Positions 2,812 to 54,644 of a DNA stretch of 64,000 nt are shown here, piece by piece; the first letter of the stretch is position 1, and every line of letters begins with the position of its first letter. The stretch comes from Candidatus Omnitrophota bacterium (GTDB lineage: Bacteria > Omnitrophota > Gorgyraeia > Gygaellales > Profunditerraquicolaceae). The position numbers and the translations under genes are program-made. The stretch spans positions 18,637 to 82,636 of the forward strand of contig JAQUOD010000005.1 of assembly GCA_028717245.1 (NCBI GenBank), given 5' to 3'. Under the pieces are notes generated by a model. It made no database searches. It was not told where the DNA came from and saw only the letters and a list, made by a program, of their open reading frames with translations.

Positions 2812-3474
2812 TTATATTTTTCCTGCCAGTAAATTTAACAGCTGCGGCTCGTTGCCTATCAGCGTCAGGGCAATAATATCATCCCCGGGCTTAAGGACTG
2901 TATTACCTTTGGGGACGATTACCTCTTCTCCCCGGACAATAGAAACCAAGACCGAATCCTGCGGTAGTTGGACATCCTGAACCTGTTTGTTGATTACCGG
3001 CGAATCAGGGGGCAAGTCCAGGCGTACGATGGCCAGTTTCCCGCGCTTAAAACTCATCAAGTTGACGAAATCCGAGAAGGAGACTTCTTCTTCGATAATC
3101 TTGGAAATAATTTTAGTAGAATCAATGGGTACGTCCACCCCTAATTCAGAAAAGGTGTGTTCGTTCTCGGGATCGTTCACCCTGCCTACGGTACGGCTGA
3201 TTTTAAAGATCTCCTTGGCTAGTTGGCAGATGATGAGATTGTCTTCGTCGTCGCCCGTGACCGCAGCCAACACTTCCGCGTGGGCAATCCCTGCCTCTTC
3301 CAGGATGCGCGGCTCGCAGCCGTCGCCGTTAATTACCATGGCCTCTAATTCCTTGGTTATCTCTTCGCAAATCTGCTTGTTTTTCTCCACGATACTCACC
3401 GTATGCTTATTCAGGCTTAGCCTCTTGGCTAAAAAATAACCCACCTTACCCGCACCTACTATTATGATATACAT
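2812..3474 (-). CDS. trkA: potassium transporter peripheral NAD-binding subunit TrkA
   Basis: It carries the N-terminal Rossmann motif IIVGAGKVG (TrkA_N) and a C-terminal TrkA_C-like domain, and is 220 aa. Confidence 0.85.
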   Translation of the reverse strand: MYIIIVGAGKVGYFLAKRLSLNKHTVSIVEKNKQICEEITKELEAMVINGDGCEPRILEEAGIAHAEVLAAVTGDDEDNLIICQLAKEIFKISRTVGRVNDPENEHTFSELGVDVPIDSTKIISKIIEEEVSFSDFVNLMSFKRGKLAIVRLDLPPDSPVINKQVQDVQLPQDSVLVSIVRGEEVIVPKGNTVLKPGDDIIALTLIGNEPQLLNLLAGKI

Positions 3475-3486
3475 AATCGCCCTCTT

Positions 3487-3553
3487 CGTTATTGCGTTAC
3501 TTGCGTTTTAGCGTTATTGCGTTCGAATGCTATAACGCAATAACCCTATAACA
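3487..3553. repeat. CGTTATTG x4-5 / ATAACNNN x4 hairpin element (trkA-trkA spacer)
   Basis: The units CGTTATTG, CGTTACTTG, CGTTTTAG, CGTTATTG and CGTTCG are followed by loop AATGCT and then ATAACGCA, ATAACCCT, ATAACACT and ATAACC. Confidence 0.8.
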
Positions 3554-4204
3554 CTATAACCCAAACCTTTCTCTTACTTTAGTTAGGCTGGCCACCTTCA
3601 CTGCCGCTGTTAATATGTCTCTTTCTCTTAATGTAGTTGAGGATTCCGGGATAATGACGCCGTGCAGCCGCCTGATGGCCACAACCAAAAATTCTCCGGG
3701 GATATTGATATCCTGTATGGTCTTGCCTATCAGGTTATCTTTGGCTTCTATCTCGATAACCCCCAGTTCTTTAGTCTCAATGAGGTAACTGGAAAAGCGG
3801 CTCTCGATGATTTTGTCCCTGAGCATCGCGGCAAACAAGATTGTTCCGCTGATAATCTCAAGGCCCAATGCGGCATAGATATGCGCGCGCTGGGGGTCAT
3901 ATACGCGGGCGATAACCTTGGGGACCTTGAAGATTTTTTTGGCTGCCTGCGCGGAGATTAAATTGGTATTGTCGCCGTTAGTTACCGCACAGAAGGCATC
4001 CGCCTTTTCAATGCCCGCTTGTTTTAGCAGGCTTAAAGAAAAACCATTGCCTACCAGAGTTACTCCGTTGAAAGTATCGCCAAGACGGTCAAAAGACGCC
4101 TGGCTCTTATCAATCACGACTACGTCGTGCCCTTCTGCTGATAAGAGTTTGGCTAATTCCGAACCTACTCTGCCGCAACCTACTATTATCACATACATAA
4201 TCAA
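3554..4204 (-). CDS. trkA: potassium transporter peripheral NAD-binding subunit TrkA (second paralog)
   Basis: It has the motif IIVGCGRVG, a TrkA_N plus TrkA_C architecture, and is 216 aa. Confidence 0.85.
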   Translation of the reverse strand: MIMYVIIVGCGRVGSELAKLLSAEGHDVVVIDKSQASFDRLGDTFNGVTLVGNGFSLSLLKQAGIEKADAFCAVTNGDNTNLISAQAAKKIFKVPKVIARVYDPQRAHIYAALGLEIISGTILFAAMLRDKIIESRFSSYLIETKELGVIEIEAKDNLIGKTIQDINIPGEFLVVAIRRLHGVIIPESSTTLRERDILTAAVKVASLTKVRERFGL

Positions 4205-4211
4205 CCTCGCC

Positions 4212-4296
4212 GTTCATTGAGTTCGTTGAGTCTATAGAGTTTATTGAGTTAACCTTACGAACTCAATAACTCAAAAAACTCAACAGGCTCAAATAA
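4212..4296. repeat. NNNTTGAGT x4 / ACTCAANNN x4 hairpin element (trkA-rplT spacer)
   Basis: TCATTGAGT, TCGTTGAGT, CTATAGAGT and TTATTGAGT are followed by a loop and then GAACTCAAT, AACTCAAAA, AACTCAACA and GGCTCAAAT. Confidence 0.85.
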
Positions 4297-4304
4297 CTAT
4301 TATA

Positions 4305-4652
4305 TTATCCTCTGGCTATTTCCACTAATTTCTTAAATGCCTGGGTGTCTTTTACTGCCAGATCCGCCAAAACTTTTCTGTCCAAACCCACCTTGGCTTT
4401 TTTTAGGCCCTGCATAAAACGGCTGTAGGTAATGCCTGCGCTGCGGCAGGCGGCATTGATGCGCGCGATCCATAACCTGCGGAATTCTCTTTTTTTGACC
4501 CGCCTATCGCGATAGGCATACACCAAGGCATGCAGGAGCGCGCGGCGCGCCTGCTGGTATTGTTTACTGCGGTCCCCCCAAAAGCCCTTGGCCTTCTTTA
4601 AGGCCCTCTTCTTCCTTCTCCTTGTTGCTACGCTGTGTTTGATTTTCGCCAT
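4305..4652 (-). CDS. rplT: 50S ribosomal protein L20
   Basis: The sequence [26 protein letters not shown]...VYAYRDRR is canonical L20. Confidence 0.95.
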
Positions 4653-4681
4653 AATATTACTCCTTTATAGTATTCCGTTTT

Positions 4682-4741
4682 GTATCAAAGTATCACGTGT
4701 CAGAGTGTCAAAGGAAAACTTTGATACTTGACACCTTGACA
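4682..4741. repeat. GTATCAAAG/GTGTCAAAG direct + inverted hairpin element (rplT-rpmI spacer)
   Basis: GTATCAAAGTATCACGTGTCAGAGTGTCAAAG is followed by loop GAAAA and then CTTTGATACTTGACACCTTGACAC. Confidence 0.85.
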
Positions 4742-4942
4742 CTAACCGTATGGTAACATCCTTTTGATATACTTGATATCTTTCTTTCCTCCCACAATCC
4801 TTGCGCGCCTTAAGGAACGGATCCTCTTGGTGTCCTTGCTGGTCAAAAGATGGCTCTTGCCGCAAGGCGAATATTTGATTTTACCCTTCTTGGTCAGATG
4901 CAATCTTTTCGCTACGCCTTTTTTGGTTTTCAATTTTGGCAT
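4742..4942 (-). CDS. rpmI: 50S ribosomal protein L35
   Basis: The sequence MPKLKTKKGVAKRLHLTKKGKI is canonical L35, 66 aa. Confidence 0.95.
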   Translation of the reverse strand: MPKLKTKKGVAKRLHLTKKGKIKYSPCGKSHLLTSKDTKRIRSLRRARIVGGKKDIKYIKRMLPYG

Positions 4943-4995
4943 TTTACCTCACCCCAATCGTCGTTATTAATCTATTAATGAACCCTCTGCCTTGT

Positions 4996-5511
4996 TTATT
5001 TCGGGCCGGCAATGAAATATATAACCCTGCCTTCTAACATAGGCTCTTTTTCTACCTGCCCGTCGTTCTGTAATTCCAGAATAAATTTATCGATAACCTT
5101 TCGGCCTATATCCAGATGCTCCATCTGCCTGCCGCGGAAGAACATGCTCACCTTGACCTTGTCTTTTTTCTTCAGGAAACTGATGGCATGTTTTACTTTT
5201 ATCTGGCAATCGTGCTCGTCGATATTAGGCTTAAGGCGGATCTCTTTTATGCGGGACTGGTGCTGGTGCTTCTTGGCCTCGCGTTCTTTCTTCTCCTGGT
5301 CGTATTTAAATTTAGTAAAATCGATTACCCGGCATACCGGAGGGCTGGCCGCAGGCGCAACCTCAACTAAGTCTAACTCGTGTTGATTTGCTATCTCCAG
5401 GGCCTGCTGAATAGGGACTACTCCCAACTGGTTACCGTCTGGCCCCACCAGGCGCACTTCTGGTACGCGTATTCTTTCGTTGGTGCGGATAAACTTTTTT
5501 ATCGTAACCAC
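4996..5511 (-). CDS. infC: translation initiation factor IF-3
   Basis: It shows IF-3 N- and C-domain motifs (RVPEVRLVGPDG...ALEIA...LDLVEV; KEIRLKPNIDEHD). It has a GTG start as read by the ORF track, consistent with non-ATG IF3 starts. Confidence 0.9.
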   Translation of the reverse strand: MVTIKKFIRTNERIRVPEVRLVGPDGNQLGVVPIQQALEIANQHELDLVEVAPAASPPVCRVIDFTKFKYDQEKKEREAKKHQHQSRIKEIRLKPNIDEHDCQIKVKHAISFLKKKDKVKVSMFFRGRQMEHLDIGRKVIDKFILELQNDGQVEKEPMLEGRVIYFIAGPK

Positions 5512-5521
5512 CTCCTTTTGG

Positions 5522-5598
5522 AGTTTGTTGAGTTCTTTGAGTTTGTTGAGTTAGTTGAGTTAACTCTATGAACTCTACAAACTCTATAAACTCAATGA
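5522..5598. repeat. NNNTTGAGT x4 / AACTCTNNN x4 hairpin element (infC-thrS spacer; inverted arm reaches thrS stop)
   Basis: TTGTTGAGT, TCTTTGAGT, TTGTTGAGT and TAGTTGAGT are followed by AACTCTATG, AACTCTACA, AACTCTATA and AACTCAATG. Confidence 0.85.
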
Positions 5599-7316
5599 AC
5601 TTTATTTTCTATTTCCTGCCTTATCTGTTTTACAAATTCTTCTATAGGCTTTGCCCCTAAGTCACCCTTGCCTCTTTGGCGCACGGCAACGGTCCCGTTT
5701 ATCTCCTCGCGCTCGCCCACAATCAGGATATAAGGAACCTTTGCTAATTCTGCCTGGCGTATCTTTTTGTTCAGAGTCTCGTTACGCTCATCCACCTCAA
5801 ATCTTATATGAGATTTTTCTAATTCGGGTTTAATCTTGCCCCTGATATACCCCTCTAATGAATCTTTTACCGGGATAACCATGACTTGCGTGGGGGCTAG
5901 CCACAGAGGAAACGCACCCTTATAGTGTTCTACCAAAGCGCCGATAAAACGCTCAAGGCTGCCCAAGAGCACGCGGTGCAACATTATAGGCTGTTTTTCT
6001 TTTCCTTGAGAGTCCACATAGGTAAGATTAAATCTTTTGGGGAGCGCGAAATCGCATTGAATAGTAGCGCATTGCCATTGGCGCTTCAGGGCGTCCTTTA
6101 ATTTTATATCAATCTTCGGCCCATAAAATGCGCCCTCTCCCGCATTTACCGTATAGGTTAAGCCTTTTTCTTTTAATGCCGCCTCCAACGCCTCGGTGGC
6201 CAGCTGCCAGTCTTCTTCTGAGCCGATATATTTTTCCGGACGCGTGCTTAACTCAATCCCCACGTCACTAAAACCGAAGACCTTCATCGTATCAAAGACA
6301 AATTCTATAATCATCTGTATTTCCTGCACCAGTTGTTCGGGTAAACAAAATATGTGCGCATCGTCCTGGGTAAAGCCACGCACCCGAAGCAGGCCGTGGA
6401 GGACCCCTGTCTTTTCATGGCGATAAACCGTGCCCAGTTCAAATAACCGTATAGGCAGGTCTTTATAACTGCGTATCCTGGATTTATAAATCAGGATATG
6501 GCCAGGGCAGTTCATCGGCTTTAAAACAAACTCCCGGTTTTCGATTTTTAAGATGTACATGTTCTCTTTGTAATATTCATAGTGGCCGGAGGTCTTCCAG
6601 AGCTCTGCCTGCATAATATGCGGGGTAATCACTATCTGATAGCCGCGGCGCAGATGCTCCTGCTTTTCGTAATCCTCGATTATCGTCCGCAGTAGCGCGC
6701 CCTTGGGATGATAAAAGACCAGCCCTGCCCCTGCCTCTTCATGATAGATATCAAATAATTCCATTGCCGGCCCCAGCTTCCTGTGGTCGCGCAACTTTGC
6801 CTCTTCTAAATTTTTTAAATATTCTTCTAATTTTTGCTTGGTTTCAAAACAAGTCCCGTAAATCCTCTGCAGCATCGGATTTGTCTCAATCCCGTGCCAA
6901 TAAGATCCGGCAACAGAGAGCAATTTAAAGGCCTGGATTTTGCCGGTGGATGCCAGATGCGGCCCGCGGCATAAGTCTATAAAATCTTTGCCTGTCTTGT
7001 AGATGGAGGCTGTCTCCCCGGGGAGCGCCTGGATAAGTTCTATTTTATAATCCTCTTTTAATTTTTTGAATAAGGCGAGCGCCTCTTTTTTGGAGAGCTC
7101 TTCTCTGATAAAAGGCTCATCCTTAGCGATTATTGCGCGCATCTTTTTTTCTATCTTTTCTAAATCCTCGTCGGTAAATGGCTCTTTCTTATCAAAGTCA
7201 TAGTAAAAGCCGTCTTCGATAGAAGGGCCGATGCCCAGCTTCGCCTGCGGCCAGAGCTCTTTTACCGCCTGAGCCATAATGTGGGAACACGAATGTCTTA
7301 AGGTATCTAAATTCAT
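5592..7316 (-). CDS. thrS: threonine--tRNA ligase
   Basis: This 574-aa protein has a class II aaRS core with ThrRS editing/second-additional-domain HxxxH (HSCSHIMAQA) and a C-terminal anticodon-binding domain. It lies in the conserved thrS-infC-rpmI-rplT neighbourhood. Confidence 0.93.
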   Translation of the reverse strand: MNLDTLRHSCSHIMAQAVKELWPQAKLGIGPSIEDGFYYDFDKKEPFTDEDLEKIEKKMRAIIAKDEPFIREELSKKEALALFKKLKEDYKIELIQALPGETASIYKTGKDFIDLCRGPHLASTGKIQAFKLLSVAGSYWHGIETNPMLQRIYGTCFETKQKLEEYLKNLEEAKLRDHRKLGPAMELFDIYHEEAGAGLVFYHPKGALLRTIIEDYEKQEHLRRGYQIVITPHIMQAELWKTSGHYEYYKENMYILKIENREFVLKPMNCPGHILIYKSRIRSYKDLPIRLFELGTVYRHEKTGVLHGLLRVRGFTQDDAHIFCLPEQLVQEIQMIIEFVFDTMKVFGFSDVGIELSTRPEKYIGSEEDWQLATEALEAALKEKGLTYTVNAGEGAFYGPKIDIKLKDALKRQWQCATIQCDFALPKRFNLTYVDSQGKEKQPIMLHRVLLGSLERFIGALVEHYKGAFPLWLAPTQVMVIPVKDSLEGYIRGKIKPELEKSHIRFEVDERNETLNKKIRQAELAKVPYILIVGEREEINGTVAVRQRGKGDLGAKPIEEFVKQIRQEIENKVH

Positions 7317-7471: not shown

Positions 7472-7484
7472 GATAAATTCAAAG

Positions 7485-7567
7485 TGGGCAAGGAGGGAGT
7501 CGGACCCTCATGACCTTGCGGCCAATGGCTTTTAAGGCCATCGTGTAAGCCATTCCACCACTTGCCC
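7485..7567 (-). tRNA. tRNA-Leu (anticodon TAA), long variable arm
   Basis: The revcomp is GGGCAAG...ATGGC-CTTAAAA-GCCAT with a long variable arm, T-arm GAGGG-TCCGACT-CCCTC and acceptor CTTGCCC+A, 83 nt. Confidence 0.85.
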
Positions 7568-7573
7568 AAATTT

Positions 7574-8242
7574 TCATGATGGTTCGCAATAAACAGTTGT
7601 GCTTTTATCCCAACCTGTATACGAACTCAAGCACTGTTGAGCCAAATTTATCTTCCTCTCAAGCCCAAAGCAATGTTTATAATAACACTGTTTAGCAATT
7701 TCTCTTGCCGCCATTTTACCGTATTTTAATACCCAAAAATTATTTCTGCTGTTATGAATCTTACCGAAAACTTCTAATAACCCCGCTATTGTGTCGCTTA
7801 ACCAGTGAACAAATTCTTCGGAGCCAGAATATATCCTCAGGCTCCATTGTTCTCCTTTATTGGTCGGGTGTACCCAGCGACGGATACATCCGTCACCGTC
7901 AATTACTCCTCTTAAAAAATCAACGAAATATTGATTTGGTATTTCTAGAGCACCCAATGTCAGAGATTTATTTTGTGTTAGCCCAATCGATAAAAGGAAA
8001 TTGTATAAATTTTTGTTTCCTACCTGAATATGAAAACATCTCTGATTTTTACTATTATATTTGATACCAATTTTGTTCTTGAGCCCGGTTGCGTCTTTAA
8101 TCGCCTGAAGGAATTGAGAATCTTTAGAGGTTATGTCTATATGTCTCCCATCCGGACATAAACACCCATCAGTTGCAATCAAACCTACCAAATACCAAAG
8201 ATTTGAACCTTCAATTTTCAATTCTTTTCGCTTATTCGGCAT
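7574..8242 (-). CDS. free-standing LAGLIDADG homing endonuclease (two-motif, monomeric type)
   Basis: This 222-aa ORF has two LAGLIDADG motifs (LWYLVGLIATDGCL and FLRGVIDGDGCI). It fills the whole spacer between tRNA-Cys and tRNA-Leu with gaps of 6-7 nt. Confidence 0.8.
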   Translation of the reverse strand: MPNKRKELKIEGSNLWYLVGLIATDGCLCPDGRHIDITSKDSQFLQAIKDATGLKNKIGIKYNSKNQRCFHIQVGNKNLYNFLLSIGLTQNKSLTLGALEIPNQYFVDFLRGVIDGDGCIRRWVHPTNKGEQWSLRIYSGSEEFVHWLSDTIAGLLEVFGKIHNSRNNFWVLKYGKMAAREIAKQCYYKHCFGLERKINLAQQCLSSYTGWDKSTTVYCEPS

Positions 8243-51979: not shown

Positions 51980-52429
51980 ATGGAGAACAACCTGTTAATG
52001 CAATTTAAGGATTTAGGCGCAATTGCGGTTTTAGCGCTGGCTGCCTTAGGTTCGGGCGCAGGCGTAGGTATCGCGGGTATGGCGGCAGTAGGGGCATGGA
52101 AGAAGAATTTTTCCCAGAATAAGAGCGCCAATTTCCTTTTGGTGGCTTTAGTGGCTGCCCCCTTGACCCAGACTATTTACGGGTTTATTGTAATGAGTAG
52201 AATGATGGAGTTAGTGGCAAGAGGCCAATTCCTCTGGGCTATAGGAATTTTTGCGGGTGCGGCCATAGGCCTTTCGGCTTATTGGCAGGGTAAGTGCGCG
52301 GCAGCTGCCTGCGACGCCTTGGGTGAAACAGGCAAGGGTTTTGCTAACTATATGACGGTCCTGGGTATGACAGAGACAGTGGCCTTGTTTGTGATGGTCT
52401 TTACCCTTGTCGTTTTGGGCAAGTTTTAG
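51980..52429 (+). CDS. atpK: V-type ATP synthase proteolipid subunit K
   Basis: It is 149 aa with Gly/Ala-rich TM hairpins, a c-ring subunit. Confidence 0.8.
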   Translation: MENNLLMQFKDLGAIAVLALAALGSGAGVGIAGMAAVGAWKKNFSQNKSANFLLVALVAAPLTQTIYGFIVMSRMMELVARGQFLWAIGIFAGAAIGLSAYWQGKCAAAACDALGETGKGFANYMTVLGMTETVALFVMVFTLVVLGKF

Positions 52430-52462
52430 TATAATGCCCCGATAAATAAGATTATATTCATC

Positions 52463-52539
52463 GGGCGGTTAGTTCAGCTGGTTAGAACGTCTCTCTTACA
52501 CAGAGAAGGTCAGGGGTTCAAGTCCTCTACCGCCCACCA
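52463..52539 (+). tRNA. tRNA-Val (anticodon TAC), CCA encoded
   Basis: The sequence is GGGCGGT-TA-GTTC-AGCTGGTTA-GAAC-G-TCTCT-CTTACAC-AGAGA-AGGTC-AGGGG-TTCAAGT-CCTCT-ACCGCCC-A-CCA. Confidence 0.85.
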
Positions 52540-52550
52540 AAATAAAAAAT

Positions 52551-53522
52551 ATGCACCTTCTCGAACGTACAAACAGGTTTAAAAGAATAGAGAGAAGATT
52601 TGATTCTCCCATTGAAGATTTGCTTTATCAGATGCATTGGCTGGAAGATATGAAGCATAGGGATATTGCCCTAAATTTGCATGCGCCGAGAGCAACAATA
52701 ACAAGATGGTTTCGCCGTTTGCAGGTGCCAACTCAGAGTTGCCGCAGATTTACTGATATGAATCTAACAAGTTGGCTATATAAAATTGGAAAATTAAAAA
52801 AGAAACCCCGCTATAGCGGTCCAGACAAAAGGCTCCAGCGGACAAGACAGGGATTAAATGTAGATTTCTTCAAGAAATGGTCAGTAGAGATGGCTTATGT
52901 ATTGGGATATTTCGCTGCCGATGGGTGCATGTTTATTAATCCGCGGGGGTCAAAATATATTTCATTTACTTCTTGTGACCGCGAAATCTTGCAGAAAGTC
53001 AAGCGGATGTTGGGCTCTGAGCATAAGTTTAGTGTAAAAAATAGGCAGAATAGAAACTGGAAAGATGCTTTTACCTTACAAATTGGTTCCAAAGAGATGT
53101 ATCAGGATTTAATAAAAAAAGGTTTTATGCCTAAAAAAGCATCTAGATTTAAATTGCCGGCCGTGCCTAAAAAATATATGAGGCACTTTATTAGAGGGTA
53201 TTTTGATGGTGATGGCAGCGTTACTTATGGGTATTTTAAAAGAAAAGATAGAAATAATAAGATGACTTCATACCTTTTAACTTGTTTATCTTCGGCAAAT
53301 TTACGTTTTTTAAGGGGAATCTCCAAGGTTTTGAAAGAAAATATAGGTATTAACGGAGGATATATAGATAAAAAAGGTGGCCACCTTGCTTATTCTAAGC
53401 TTGACAGCATTAAGTTATTCCAGTATATTTATACAAACGTTAATAAGGGGCAATACTTAGAAAGAAAATATAAGAAGTTTAGGAAGGCATTCGAAATTAA
53501 TAGGGGCTGTGGCCTAGTCTAG
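52551..53522 (+). CDS. free-standing LAGLIDADG homing endonuclease (second copy, two-motif type)
   Basis: It is 323 aa with the motifs AYVLGYFAADGCMF and FIRGYFDGDGSV. It starts 11 nt after tRNA-Val, and its last codons overlap the 5' end of tRNA-Asp. Confidence 0.8.
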   Translation: MHLLERTNRFKRIERRFDSPIEDLLYQMHWLEDMKHRDIALNLHAPRATITRWFRRLQVPTQSCRRFTDMNLTSWLYKIGKLKKKPRYSGPDKRLQRTRQGLNVDFFKKWSVEMAYVLGYFAADGCMFINPRGSKYISFTSCDREILQKVKRMLGSEHKFSVKNRQNRNWKDAFTLQIGSKEMYQDLIKKGFMPKKASRFKLPAVPKKYMRHFIRGYFDGDGSVTYGYFKRKDRNNKMTSYLLTCLSSANLRFLRGISKVLKENIGINGGYIDKKGGHLAYSKLDSIKLFQYIYTNVNKGQYLERKYKKFRKAFEINRGCGLV

Positions 53523-53578
53523 TTCATGGCGTCTCCCTGTCACGGAGAAGATCGCGGGTGCGAATCCCGTCAGCCCCG
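53502..53578 (+). tRNA. tRNA-Asp (anticodon GTC), enlarged D-loop
   Basis: The sequence is GGGGCTG...TCTCC-CTGTCAC-GGAGA-AGATC-GCGGG-TGCGAAT-CCCGT-CAGCCCC-G. The D-arm carries about 3 extra nt (TAGTCTAGTTCA). Confidence 0.75.
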
Positions 53579-53594
53579 CTTTTCGTTTCAGTAT

Positions 53595-53626
53595 CAAAAG
53601 CCACAATGCATCGTTGTGGCTTTTTG
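53595..53626 (+). terminator. rho-independent terminator after tRNA-Asp
   Basis: AAAAGCCACAA-TGCATCG-TTGTGGCTTTTT. Confidence 0.75.
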
Positions 53627-53817
53627 ATTGCGCACTCGCCGCCCCTTAAGCCCAATAAGAAACCTCCCCAAAGGGCGGGAGGAGGCAGGGCCGCGTCGAA
53701 TTGGCTTGATAACGAATTAGCTGCGAGAATTTATTCGGGCAGAAATGATACATAACATATGTAAATAATGCTCTACATTTATAATCTCGCTGATATAATA
53801 TACCAGCTATAAACTCG

Positions 53818-53993: not shown

Positions 53994-54644
53994 ATGTTTA
54001 AGGCATTACTATTTGTTGGTATAGCGTTTATTTTCACGGTTATGTTTGTTACTCCTATACGAAACTATATGAATAATCTTTTCTTGAGAGATAAATCTCA
54101 GCTAAAAGAAGAACAGATTATCGGAACGGTTTCAGGATACAGCCCGCGCGTAGAAGAGATACAAAGGATTTTAAAAAACGCTCATTTTGATCCCGGCCCT
54201 GCGGATGGAGTAATGGGTAGCCGCACCCGAAAGGCAATCAGGGAATTCCAGGAAGAAAAAGGTTTCTGGCCGAACGGCAGAGTGGATTCGAAAACCTGGC
54301 TTGAGTTAAATCGGGAAAAAGAAACGTTTAAGGAAGAAGCAAATGCGCAACCTTTGGCCTTGCTTTCCGAAGAGTATCCCCGTGACGTAAAATCTAAGGA
54401 AGAAATTGCAAAAATTAGAGAGCCCCAGGAGAAAATAGCCAAAGTAGCGTTTCCCCAAGACAGAAAAACACAAATTCAAATGGCCTTACAAAAAGCTAAT
54501 TTTTATAAAGGGAAGATTGACGGGAAAATAGGCCCGCAAACAAAAAAAGCGATCAAGGCATTTCAAAAGGCCAAAGGATTAAGGGCGGACGGTGCCGTAG
54601 GCGCTCAAACCTGGGCTGAGCTGAATAAGTATTTGAAAGAGTAA
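53994..54644 (+). CDS. secreted/membrane-anchored protein with two peptidoglycan-binding (PG_binding_1-like) domains
   Basis: It has an N-terminal TM/signal segment and two repeats of the DG..G..T..AI..FQ...GL..DG.VG..TW..L pattern. It is 216 aa. Confidence 0.7.
   Translation: MFKALLFVGIAFIFTVMFVTPIRNYMNNLFLRDKSQLKEEQIIGTVSGYSPRVEEIQRILKNAHFDPGPADGVMGSRTRKAIREFQEEKGFWPNGRVDSKTWLELNREKETFKEEANAQPLALLSEEYPRDVKSKEEIAKIREPQEKIAKVAFPQDRKTQIQMALQKANFYKGKIDGKIGPQTKKAIKAFQKAKGLRADGAVGAQTWAELNKYLKE

Follow-up and report, generated by a model that had tools for sequence, protein, structure and literature searches.

How does a LAGLIDADG endonuclease gene come to lie between two chromosomal tRNA genes of a bacterium, with its last codons inside the second of them? 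The gene in question occupies positions 52551–53522 of a 64-kb stretch of contig JAQUOD010000005.1 (hereafter the window), which is the portion of a Candidatus Omnitrophota metagenome-assembled genome (MAG) that was open to inspection. The V-ATPase I and K subunit genes and tRNA-Val(TAC) precede the gene, and tRNA-Asp(GTC) follows it. Based on comparison with related loci, we consider it quite probable that this is a free-standing homing endonuclease gene whose home is tRNA-Asp(GTC), and that it has replaced a promoter-bearing spacer of 39–209 nt between tRNA-Val and tRNA-Asp.

A two-motif LAGLIDADG endonuclease gene

The features on which this reading rests are listed below; tRNA genes were called with ARAGORN and then scored with Rfam (RF00005; gathering score 29 bits).

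52463..52539, + strand: tRNA-Val(TAC), left neighbor and putative left homology arm of the cassette (ARAGORN; Rfam 68.7 bits)
52551..53522, + strand: LAGLIDADG homing endonuclease gene, free-standing, single chain with two motifs, 323 amino acids (aa) (Pfam, PHROG, AlphaFold/Foldseek)
52572..52784, + strand: predicted N-terminal five-helix, helix-turn-helix (HTH)-like domain, residues 8–78 (AlphaFold secondary structure and pLDDT, the per-residue confidence of the model)
52902..52931, + strand: LAGLIDADG motif 1, LGYFAADGCM, residues 118–127, catalytic Asp124 (open reading frame (ORF) coordinates; alignment A3)
53190..53222, + strand: LAGLIDADG motif 2, IRGYFDGDGSV, residues 214–224, catalytic Asp221 (ORF coordinates; alignment A3)
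53503..53522, + strand: 20 nt shared by the end of the ORF and the start of tRNA-Asp, covering acceptor strand, D-stem, and D-loop (sequence, ORF and Rfam calls)
53503..53579, + strand: tRNA-Asp(GTC) with A18 (53521) and G55 (53560) (ARAGORN; Rfam 61.4 bits)

The ORF is identified from its sequence as a gene for a two-motif, single-chain LAGLIDADG endonuclease. An earlier sequence-only reading had reported a 323-aa ORF with both motifs, and the coordinates and translation agree; the profile search that it proposed gives matches above the curated cut-offs to LAGLIDADG_3 (PF14528; E 5.8e-19, 68.6 bits, cut-off 22.5) and LAGLIDADG_1 (PF00961; E 5e-5, 24.6 bits, cut-off 23.1). The protein also matches PHROG 4645 “endonuclease” (E 8e-42), and NCBI holds an identical protein labeled “LAGLIDADG family homing endonuclease”; a separate exact-sequence lookup returned no record, and an NCBIfam scan returned weak matches only, to archaeal proteins bearing inteins. 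In an alignment of 14 endonuclease sequences at 43–100% identity (A3), D124 and D221 are both invariant in intact members.

The AlphaFold model (pLDDT 82.6) comprises an N-terminal domain, a flexible linker (residues 85–97, low confidence) and a double LAGLIDADG core, for which an alpha-beta-beta-alpha-beta-beta-alpha fold is predicted twice. The best Foldseek match of the core is I-Tsp061I (2dch; E 7e-10, template modeling (TM) score 0.70), followed by I-AniI, I-SmaMI, and I-OnuI, with probability 1.00 for all four, and a sequence profile search likewise recovers 2dch (E 1.9e-5). I-Tsp061I is thus the closest solved structure and sequence, and the archaeal monomeric endonucleases of the I-Tsp061I/I-DmoI type share with the window protein a single chain with two motifs and catalytic acidic residues; those enzymes are encoded inside rRNA introns and lack an N-terminal HTH-like domain, whereas the window gene is free-standing, flanked by tRNA genes and overlaps one of them. 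The N-terminal domain itself matches phrog_664 “DNA binding protein” (E 6e-4) and, weakly, Pfam HTH_23 (E 0.14). It is strongly conserved in alignment A3 and missing from short-form relatives, and its tree is incongruent with that of the nuclease core.

LAGLIDADG genes are usually encoded by introns or inteins, and group I introns are contained in tRNA-Asp genes of Patescibacteria (PMC13011429), so the ORF might lie in a group I intron or be left over from an intein. Against this, each of the two tRNAs is intact, no ORF is present that could host an intein, and no group I or II intron family of Rfam matches positions 52300–53800 at E ≤ 1. Within the detection range of Rfam, an intron origin is excluded, and this explanation as a whole is extremely improbable.

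Overlap with tRNA-Asp

The sequence-only reading had placed the ORF 11 nt after tRNA-Val(TAC), behind the V-ATPase genes, with its last codons and stop inside tRNA-Asp(GTC). The coordinates bear this out: 11 nt separate tRNA-Val from the ATG, the overlap spans 20 nt, and the stop codon TAG (53520–53522) corresponds to tRNA-Asp positions 17a-18-19. The call of tRNA-Asp also withstands covariance-model scoring, at more than twice the gathering score. In most relatives with the gene upstream of tRNA-Asp, the acceptor strand of tRNA-Asp also encodes the final residues of the protein (..GAVA, ..GT, ..GA), which indicates that these ORFs borrow their stop codon from the tRNA gene.

The same reading had also described an unusual 13-nt D-loop with a TAGTC-TAGTTCA duplication, taken as a possible scar of insertion. 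The D-loop is AGUCUAGUUCA, with 11 nt closed by a U13-U22 mismatch, and a count of 13 nt arises only if this mismatch is taken as unpaired. Relatives without the endonuclease gene have a D-loop of equal length (AGYCUGGUUYA), which rules out an enlargement and, with it, an insertion scar in the loop; the apparent repeat reflects one G18-to-A substitution. We also considered whether A18 serves to supply the stop codon. In the window, a 1-nt frame difference makes the A18-containing TAG the stop in use; as a general cause this was rejected, since locus L001 ends at an earlier TAG and locus L137 has A18/G55 with the gene downstream of tRNA-Asp.

tRNA-Asp as the constant partner of the family

A protein search with the window endonuclease returned 2,290 homologues, mostly of ~290–330 aa and mostly from Omnitrophota. 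Gene context was inspected for members at 36–80% identity, and tRNA-Asp(GTC) adjoins the endonuclease gene at every locus examined. The usual upstream neighbor is tRNA-Val(TAC) behind the V-ATPase operon; at L006, L098, and L163 it is tRNA-Met(CAT) in a different gene neighborhood, and at L137 and L254 the gene lies directly downstream of tRNA-Asp, beyond its terminator. Because both the upstream neighbor and the side of the gene vary, tRNA-Asp is the constant feature, rather than the spacer or the operon. Relatives in IMG/VR phages reach at most 41% identity and only one of 80 lies near tRNAs, and a phage origin was rejected on these grounds.

A short form of the nuclease (~215–240 aa, ~45–58% identical, without the N-terminal domain) occurs at L117, L119, L125, L145, L171, L163, and L079. 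Its presence at the same site beside a G18 tRNA-Asp suggests that at least two nuclease lineages compete for one site.

The window contains another LAGLIDADG gene, here called the first locus:

7574-8242, − strand: LAGLIDADG gene, 222 aa (PF14528 match)

The sequence-only reading had called the two endonucleases non-homologous; in fact they align at 31% identity over 135 aa (E 4e-18) and both match PF14528, which makes them homologous. Like the window endonuclease gene, the first-locus gene is placed beside a specific tRNA gene, ending 6–18 nt before tRNA-Leu(TAA); unlike it, the first-locus gene is shorter, has no N-terminal domain, has another partner tRNA and does not overlap it. Its family comprises 819 homologues, and in the three loci examined the gene ends 8–18 nt before tRNA-Leu(TAA). 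The recurring residence in tRNA spacers that the earlier reading had suspected therefore holds and is family-specific, with tRNA-Asp as the partner in one family and tRNA-Leu(TAA) in the other. The tRNA-Leu(TAA) directly after the first-locus gene (7484–7567, − strand) has the T-loop UCCGACU, with C55 and not U55.

The nuclease family and free-standing homing endonucleases as a class are already known, the latter being well studied in phages and organelles and far less so on the chromosomes of bacteria. In the present case, two related LAGLIDADG families each appear to be specialized on one chromosomal tRNA gene, and if the inferred targets are right, they would provide a naturally occurring collection of small single-chain nucleases with specificity for short conserved stretches of tRNA genes.

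Sporadic presence, decay, and gene conversion

With an alignment of V-ATPase subunit I as probe and one genome per species, 80 Omnitrophota loci were collected, of which 40 have V-ATPase K, tRNA-Val(TAC), and tRNA-Asp(GTC) in synteny. An uninterrupted Val–Asp allele, for which the sequence-only reading had proposed a search, is the common state: the endonuclease gene is missing from 35 of these 40 species loci and present in five. The gene-free loci mostly have a short spacer (39–209 nt) with a TTTTnGnTACAAT-like promoter ~20 nt before the tRNA. In four of the 35, the spacer holds other cargo. Spacer cargo observed among the loci includes ORFs of 196–247 aa that resemble outer-membrane beta-barrel proteins (L028, 6332–7075; L045, 6508–7098) and a 118-aa membrane protein (L015, 7839–8195; L056, 7740–8096).

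Two of the five gene copies in the 40-species set are decayed: the L039 copy is frameshifted, and at L047 only the C-terminal half is left, a small GIY-YIG ORF replacing the N-terminal half. The copy at L079, also one of the five, has no N-terminal domain. Elsewhere, L123 retains an endonuclease remnant.

The most direct evidence of exchange comes from the close relatives L002 and L255, which have 100% identical V-ATPase I and K proteins. Leaving aside a 42-nt indel block, their flanks are essentially free of mismatches, over a length of more than 2.2 kb on the upstream side and more than 2.3 kb on the downstream side; between them lies one tract of ~1.1 kb that is ~10% divergent, with endonuclease proteins 89% identical. 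The left end of the tract reaches from ~19 nt before tRNA-Val into tRNA-Val, and its right end falls at about position 20, in the D-loop of tRNA-Asp. Judging by the alignment, this divergent block is a gene-conversion tract that ends in two tRNA genes, and exchange as a block with such ends suggests that the conserved tRNAs act as homology arms. L137 and L254 form a different mosaic, in which the flanks and gene ends are 89–92% identical and the nuclease core 66%. L254 also has an insert of ~190 nt after tRNA-Val (2105–2290), with the direct repeat CTCGACTCGGCGCTTCGCGCCTCGCTCGTGG present twice, that is missing from the similar L137.

Two results weigh against the homing interpretation. Endonuclease identity is correlated with V-ATPase I identity (r = 0.68), which indicates that transmission is largely vertical, with local exchange; and among 27 pairs of similar flanks there is no near-isogenic pair with and without the gene. 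Mobility is nevertheless supported by the presence/absence polymorphism, the decayed copies and the bounded conversion tract.

These data also bear on the possibility that the gene encodes a domesticated LAGLIDADG protein, such as a regulator resembling WhiA or a factor of the tRNA operon, retained because it serves the host. Such a role would be compatible with full-length, well-conserved members that have a conserved N-terminal HTH-like domain, with an endonuclease identity that partly follows host markers, and with the name “WhiA” that one source gives to a first-locus homologue. It is difficult to reconcile with a gene present in only five of 40 syntenic species and decayed in two of them, with the invariance of both catalytic Asp residues, and with a bounded exchange tract between the otherwise identical strains L002 and L255; we regard domestication as very unlikely. 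In WhiA, the HTH is C-terminal and the catalytic residues are missing. A WhiA-like regulator in particular was rejected, as the window protein has its extra domain at the N terminus, and its family is sporadically distributed and keeps both catalytic Asp residues without exception.

A covarying A18/G55 allele of tRNA-Asp

The tRNA-Asp of the window departs from the canonical G18/U55 elbow, with A at 53521 (position 18) and G at 53560 (position 55). The G18–U55 pair is the conserved elbow contact between D-loop and T-loop, these are among the most conserved nucleotides of tRNA, and no tRNA modification is more universally conserved than pseudouridine at position 55 (psi55) (PMC7912444). We extended the comparison to a tRNA-Asp set of 75 loci, recovered by a metagenome scan with the pattern TGGCCTAGYCTRGTTYANGGCG, in which either base was accepted at position 18. 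In all locus sets combined, A18 goes with G55 in nine distinct tRNA-Asp sequences, whereas G18 goes with U55 in 38 and with C55 in 21; there are no mixed 18/55 combinations (nine vs. 59 distinct sequences). In this sample, positions 18 and 55 covary perfectly.

The A18/G55 alleles retain the anticodon and all helices, and vary among themselves by compensatory pairs in the acceptor stem (C6-G67/U6-A67 and G7-C66/A7-U66); for these reasons the A18/G55 tRNA-Asp looks functional. The alternative, that it is a non-functional copy (a decoy or a casualty of insertion) and that a working tRNA-Asp is encoded elsewhere in the genome, draws on the exceptional conservation of G18 and U55 (PMC7912444), on an Rfam score slightly below those of the other tRNAs of the window (tRNA-Glu and tRNA-Leu excepted), and on the 64-kb extent of the examinable sequence. 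Against it stand the nine distinct sequences with intact anticodon, helices and compensatory stems, in which positions 18 and 55 never change singly. Moreover, ARAGORN finds no second tRNA-Asp within the 64-kb window, and the A18/G55 allele of L137 has its own promoter and terminator. We consider a non-functional tRNA-Asp unlikely.

The allele is associated with the endonuclease gene. In the two locus sets that were not selected for the gene, a gene or remnant is present at six of seven A18/G55 loci vs. 11 of 91 G18 loci (Fisher p = 7e-5, for loci that are not phylogenetically independent). In the tree of the nuclease core, the clade of the window, L001, L137, and L074/L143 is A18/G55 throughout, and its sister clade (L002, L255, and L254) is G18 throughout, independent of whether the gene lies up- or downstream of the tRNA and of which N-terminal domain is attached. 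The closest endonuclease-free alleles differ chiefly at 18 and 55 (L101 vs. L110: positions 18, 22, 50, and 55). A18/G55 thus appears to be confined almost entirely to the neighborhood of the nuclease lineage found in the window.

Based on these distributions, A18/G55 is probably a cleavage-resistant, compensated target allele, in which one substitution would prevent recognition by the nuclease and its partner would re-establish the contact between D-loop and T-loop. Positions 18 and 55 are ~40 bp apart in the tRNA-Asp gene and a typical LAGLIDADG site is roughly 22 bp, so a single site of this size cannot span both. A bolder reading, which we consider somewhat less likely than not, is that the nuclease targets the tRNA-Asp nucleotides of the D-/T-loop elbow, and that the sole viable escape is G18 to A together with U/C55 to G.

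Several observations weigh against this coupling of nuclease and allele. L110 has A18/G55 beside a different nuclease core, and L114 has A18/G55 and no endonuclease gene, which could represent a resistant allele remaining after loss of the gene. The tRNA-Asp sequences of L002, of L004/L031 and of the short-form loci L117, L119, and L125 are alleles that also occur in genomes without the gene; because of this identity, the tRNA body cannot carry immunity in these lineages. Finally, tRNA-Asp types are common to divergent genomes (r = 0.28 for tRNA-Asp vs. V-ATPase I identity), and with types so widely shared, tRNA similarity alone is no proof of co-transfer. As an argument for co-transfer, tRNA-Asp identity relative to V-ATPase identity was judged weak, being unusual only where the two most similar gene-bearing and gene-free pairs are compared.

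Some of these observations lend weight to an alternative in which the target is the Val–Asp spacer or the junction of spacer and tRNA: insertion would destroy the site, and A18/G55 would be neutral or separately selected, hitch-hiking with one lineage by linkage. In agreement with this, the tRNA-Asp of gene-bearing loci equals that of gene-free ones (L002 and L021; L031 and L043; L117 and L124/L150/L164), an upstream-placed gene replaces the whole spacer, and L114 keeps A18/G55 without the gene. Conversely, the spacer is poorly conserved across species and the association with tRNA-Asp is constant whatever the upstream gene, and at L137 and L254 the gene lies 3′ of tRNA-Asp with the spacer and promoter intact. 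Furthermore, the differences in tRNA and in nuclease core between L137 and L254 are separated by ~330 nt at 89–92% identity, which fits coupling better than a single hitch-hiking tract. We consider a spacer target with a hitch-hiking allele less likely than not.

If tRNA-Asp is the target and A18/G55 the escape, a selfish element would have driven, and would now travel with, a rewired version of a highly conserved tRNA tertiary contact, and the conflict between nuclease and target would have shaped core tRNA structure. It would also be natural evidence for an A18–G55 contact as a substitute for G18–psi55, and a natural covarying 18:55 pair could reveal how replaceable the tRNA elbow is.

Separately, the tRNA-Asp of Omnitrophota often has C55 rather than U55 (the 21 distinct sequences above, with TCCRAAT T-loops), at L012, L026, L040, L048, L052, L059, L069, L077, and many of L099–L173. 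Position 55 is not pseudouridylatable in these tRNAs, which raises the question of whether TruB is present or needed in Omnitrophota.

Proposed homing and expression

Returning to tRNA-Asp as the home of the gene, we infer that the enzyme would cut tRNA-Asp loci that have no copy of the gene, at a point within or close to the 5′ half of tRNA-Asp, and that repair would use the tRNA genes as homology, copying the cassette in. A cut at this place is consistent with the end of the L002/L255 tract in the D-loop and with the precedent of phage T4 SegB. The gene for SegB is a free-standing nuclease gene in a tRNA gene cluster, and its abstract reports recognition of a site that includes the conserved T-psi-C stem-loop motif of tRNA, and spread together with adjacent tRNA markers by gene conversion (PMC2330249). 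The abstract mentions no tRNA allele that combines resistance with a compensated tertiary pair (PMC2330249). SegB further differs from the window endonuclease in belonging to the GIY-YIG superfamily and to a phage, rather than being a LAGLIDADG protein of a bacterial chromosome. We know of no overlap between the SegB ORF and a tRNA gene.

Free-standing LAGLIDADG ORFs also occur in intergenic regions of fungal mitochondria, whose transcripts follow the tRNA punctuation model; like the window gene they lie outside introns and in compact genomes, and unlike it they are organellar and not tied to one tRNA gene. To our knowledge, none of them has a stop codon borrowed from a tRNA. In the searchable literature we found no LAGLIDADG families of chromosomes that each keep to a single tRNA gene, no ORF that ends inside a tRNA, no use of tRNA genes as conversion arms, and no nuclease-linked A18/G55 rewiring of the elbow.

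Four further features bear on how the gene may be expressed; promoter-like sites were scored as consensus matches out of 12.

52407..52435, + strand: promoter-like site TTGTCG-17-TATAAT upstream of tRNA-Val (consensus scan, 10/12)
52540..52550, + strand: A/T-only leader AAATAAAAAAT, 11 nt, without Shine-Dalgarno sequence (sequence)
53401..53429, + strand: promoter-like site TTGACA-17-TATATT in the ORF 3′ end, 74 nt before tRNA-Asp (consensus scan, 11/12)
53591..53631, + strand: terminator-like hairpin after tRNA-Asp (RNA fold −19.7 kcal/mol, z-score −3.7)

The endonuclease gene would be co-transcribed with the tRNAs from the tRNA-Val promoter. The site at 52407–52435 is the likely start of a tRNA-Val/endonuclease/tRNA-Asp co-transcript, to be taken as a lead only; the regional number of such sites is not above chance. 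Processing of the tRNA-Val 3′ end would leave a near-leaderless message without a Shine-Dalgarno sequence. The neighboring K-subunit gene is preceded by AAGGAGG, unlike the endonuclease ORF, and long-form relatives that follow tRNA-Val have A/T-rich leaders of 8–24 nt; one relative, L006, has GGAGG. At the other end, an RNase P cut at 53503 would strip the last six codons and the stop from the message, so that one transcript would give either a mature tRNA-Asp or a complete message. This exclusivity would hold nuclease expression low, and makes the locus a testable case of competition between message and tRNA at a single RNase P site. Counting against this expression scheme, the promoters and the terminator were called as no more than matches to a consensus, and the processing steps are deduced.

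The tRNA-Asp promoter of the empty alleles is gone from the window locus, and the internal site at 53401–53429 could replace it. TTGACA-17-TATAT(T/G) is kept in L001, L074, L141, and L110, is lost from members at greater distance, and falls on codons that are themselves conserved. As a candidate, an internal tRNA-Asp promoter (TTGACA-17-TATATT; TATAAT in the codons for “RKYNKF”) was set aside as suggestive, being confounded by codon conservation. For the hairpin at 53591–53631, none of 200 shuffled sequences folds as well, and the consensus terminator scan did not list it.

Neighboring cargo and other elements

Variable, island-like cargo lies directly downstream of tRNA-Asp at L001 (5286–7259), L002/L255, L005 (4902–6416), and L094 (5110–6538). 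The cargo types include an HNH protein with a LexA-methyltransferase fusion, AAA_21/RloB, HigB with an HTH protein, and a serine recombinase whose 3′ end overlaps tRNA-Asp on the opposite strand. The 3′ end of tRNA-Asp resembles a hot spot for integration that is distinct from the endonuclease gene. Small GIY-YIG ORFs (91–98 aa) are present in tRNA clusters at L047 (6479–6775, in place of the N-terminal half of the decayed LAGLIDADG gene described above) and at L089 (3412–3687), the latter following tRNA-Val(GAC) downstream of a member of the first-locus family. At L098, a gyrB gene with an intein (3432–5657; Pfam Intein_splicing) lies next to the tRNA-Met/endonuclease/tRNA-Asp locus, and constitutes another selfish element in the neighborhood of the endonuclease.

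Several contigs with V-ATPase loci of the Omnitrophota type (L013, L019, L023, L072, and others) are labeled as Planctomycetia, Thermodesulfovibrionia, or Methanolinea, which are probably errors of binning or taxonomy. In the window itself, an nhaA-I riboswitch match (Rfam RF03057; 53875–53932, + strand; 47.3 bits, gathering score 37) lies ~60 nt upstream of an ORF (53994–54644) that encodes a 216-aa protein with peptidoglycan-binding-like repeats, and not a Na+/H+ antiporter.

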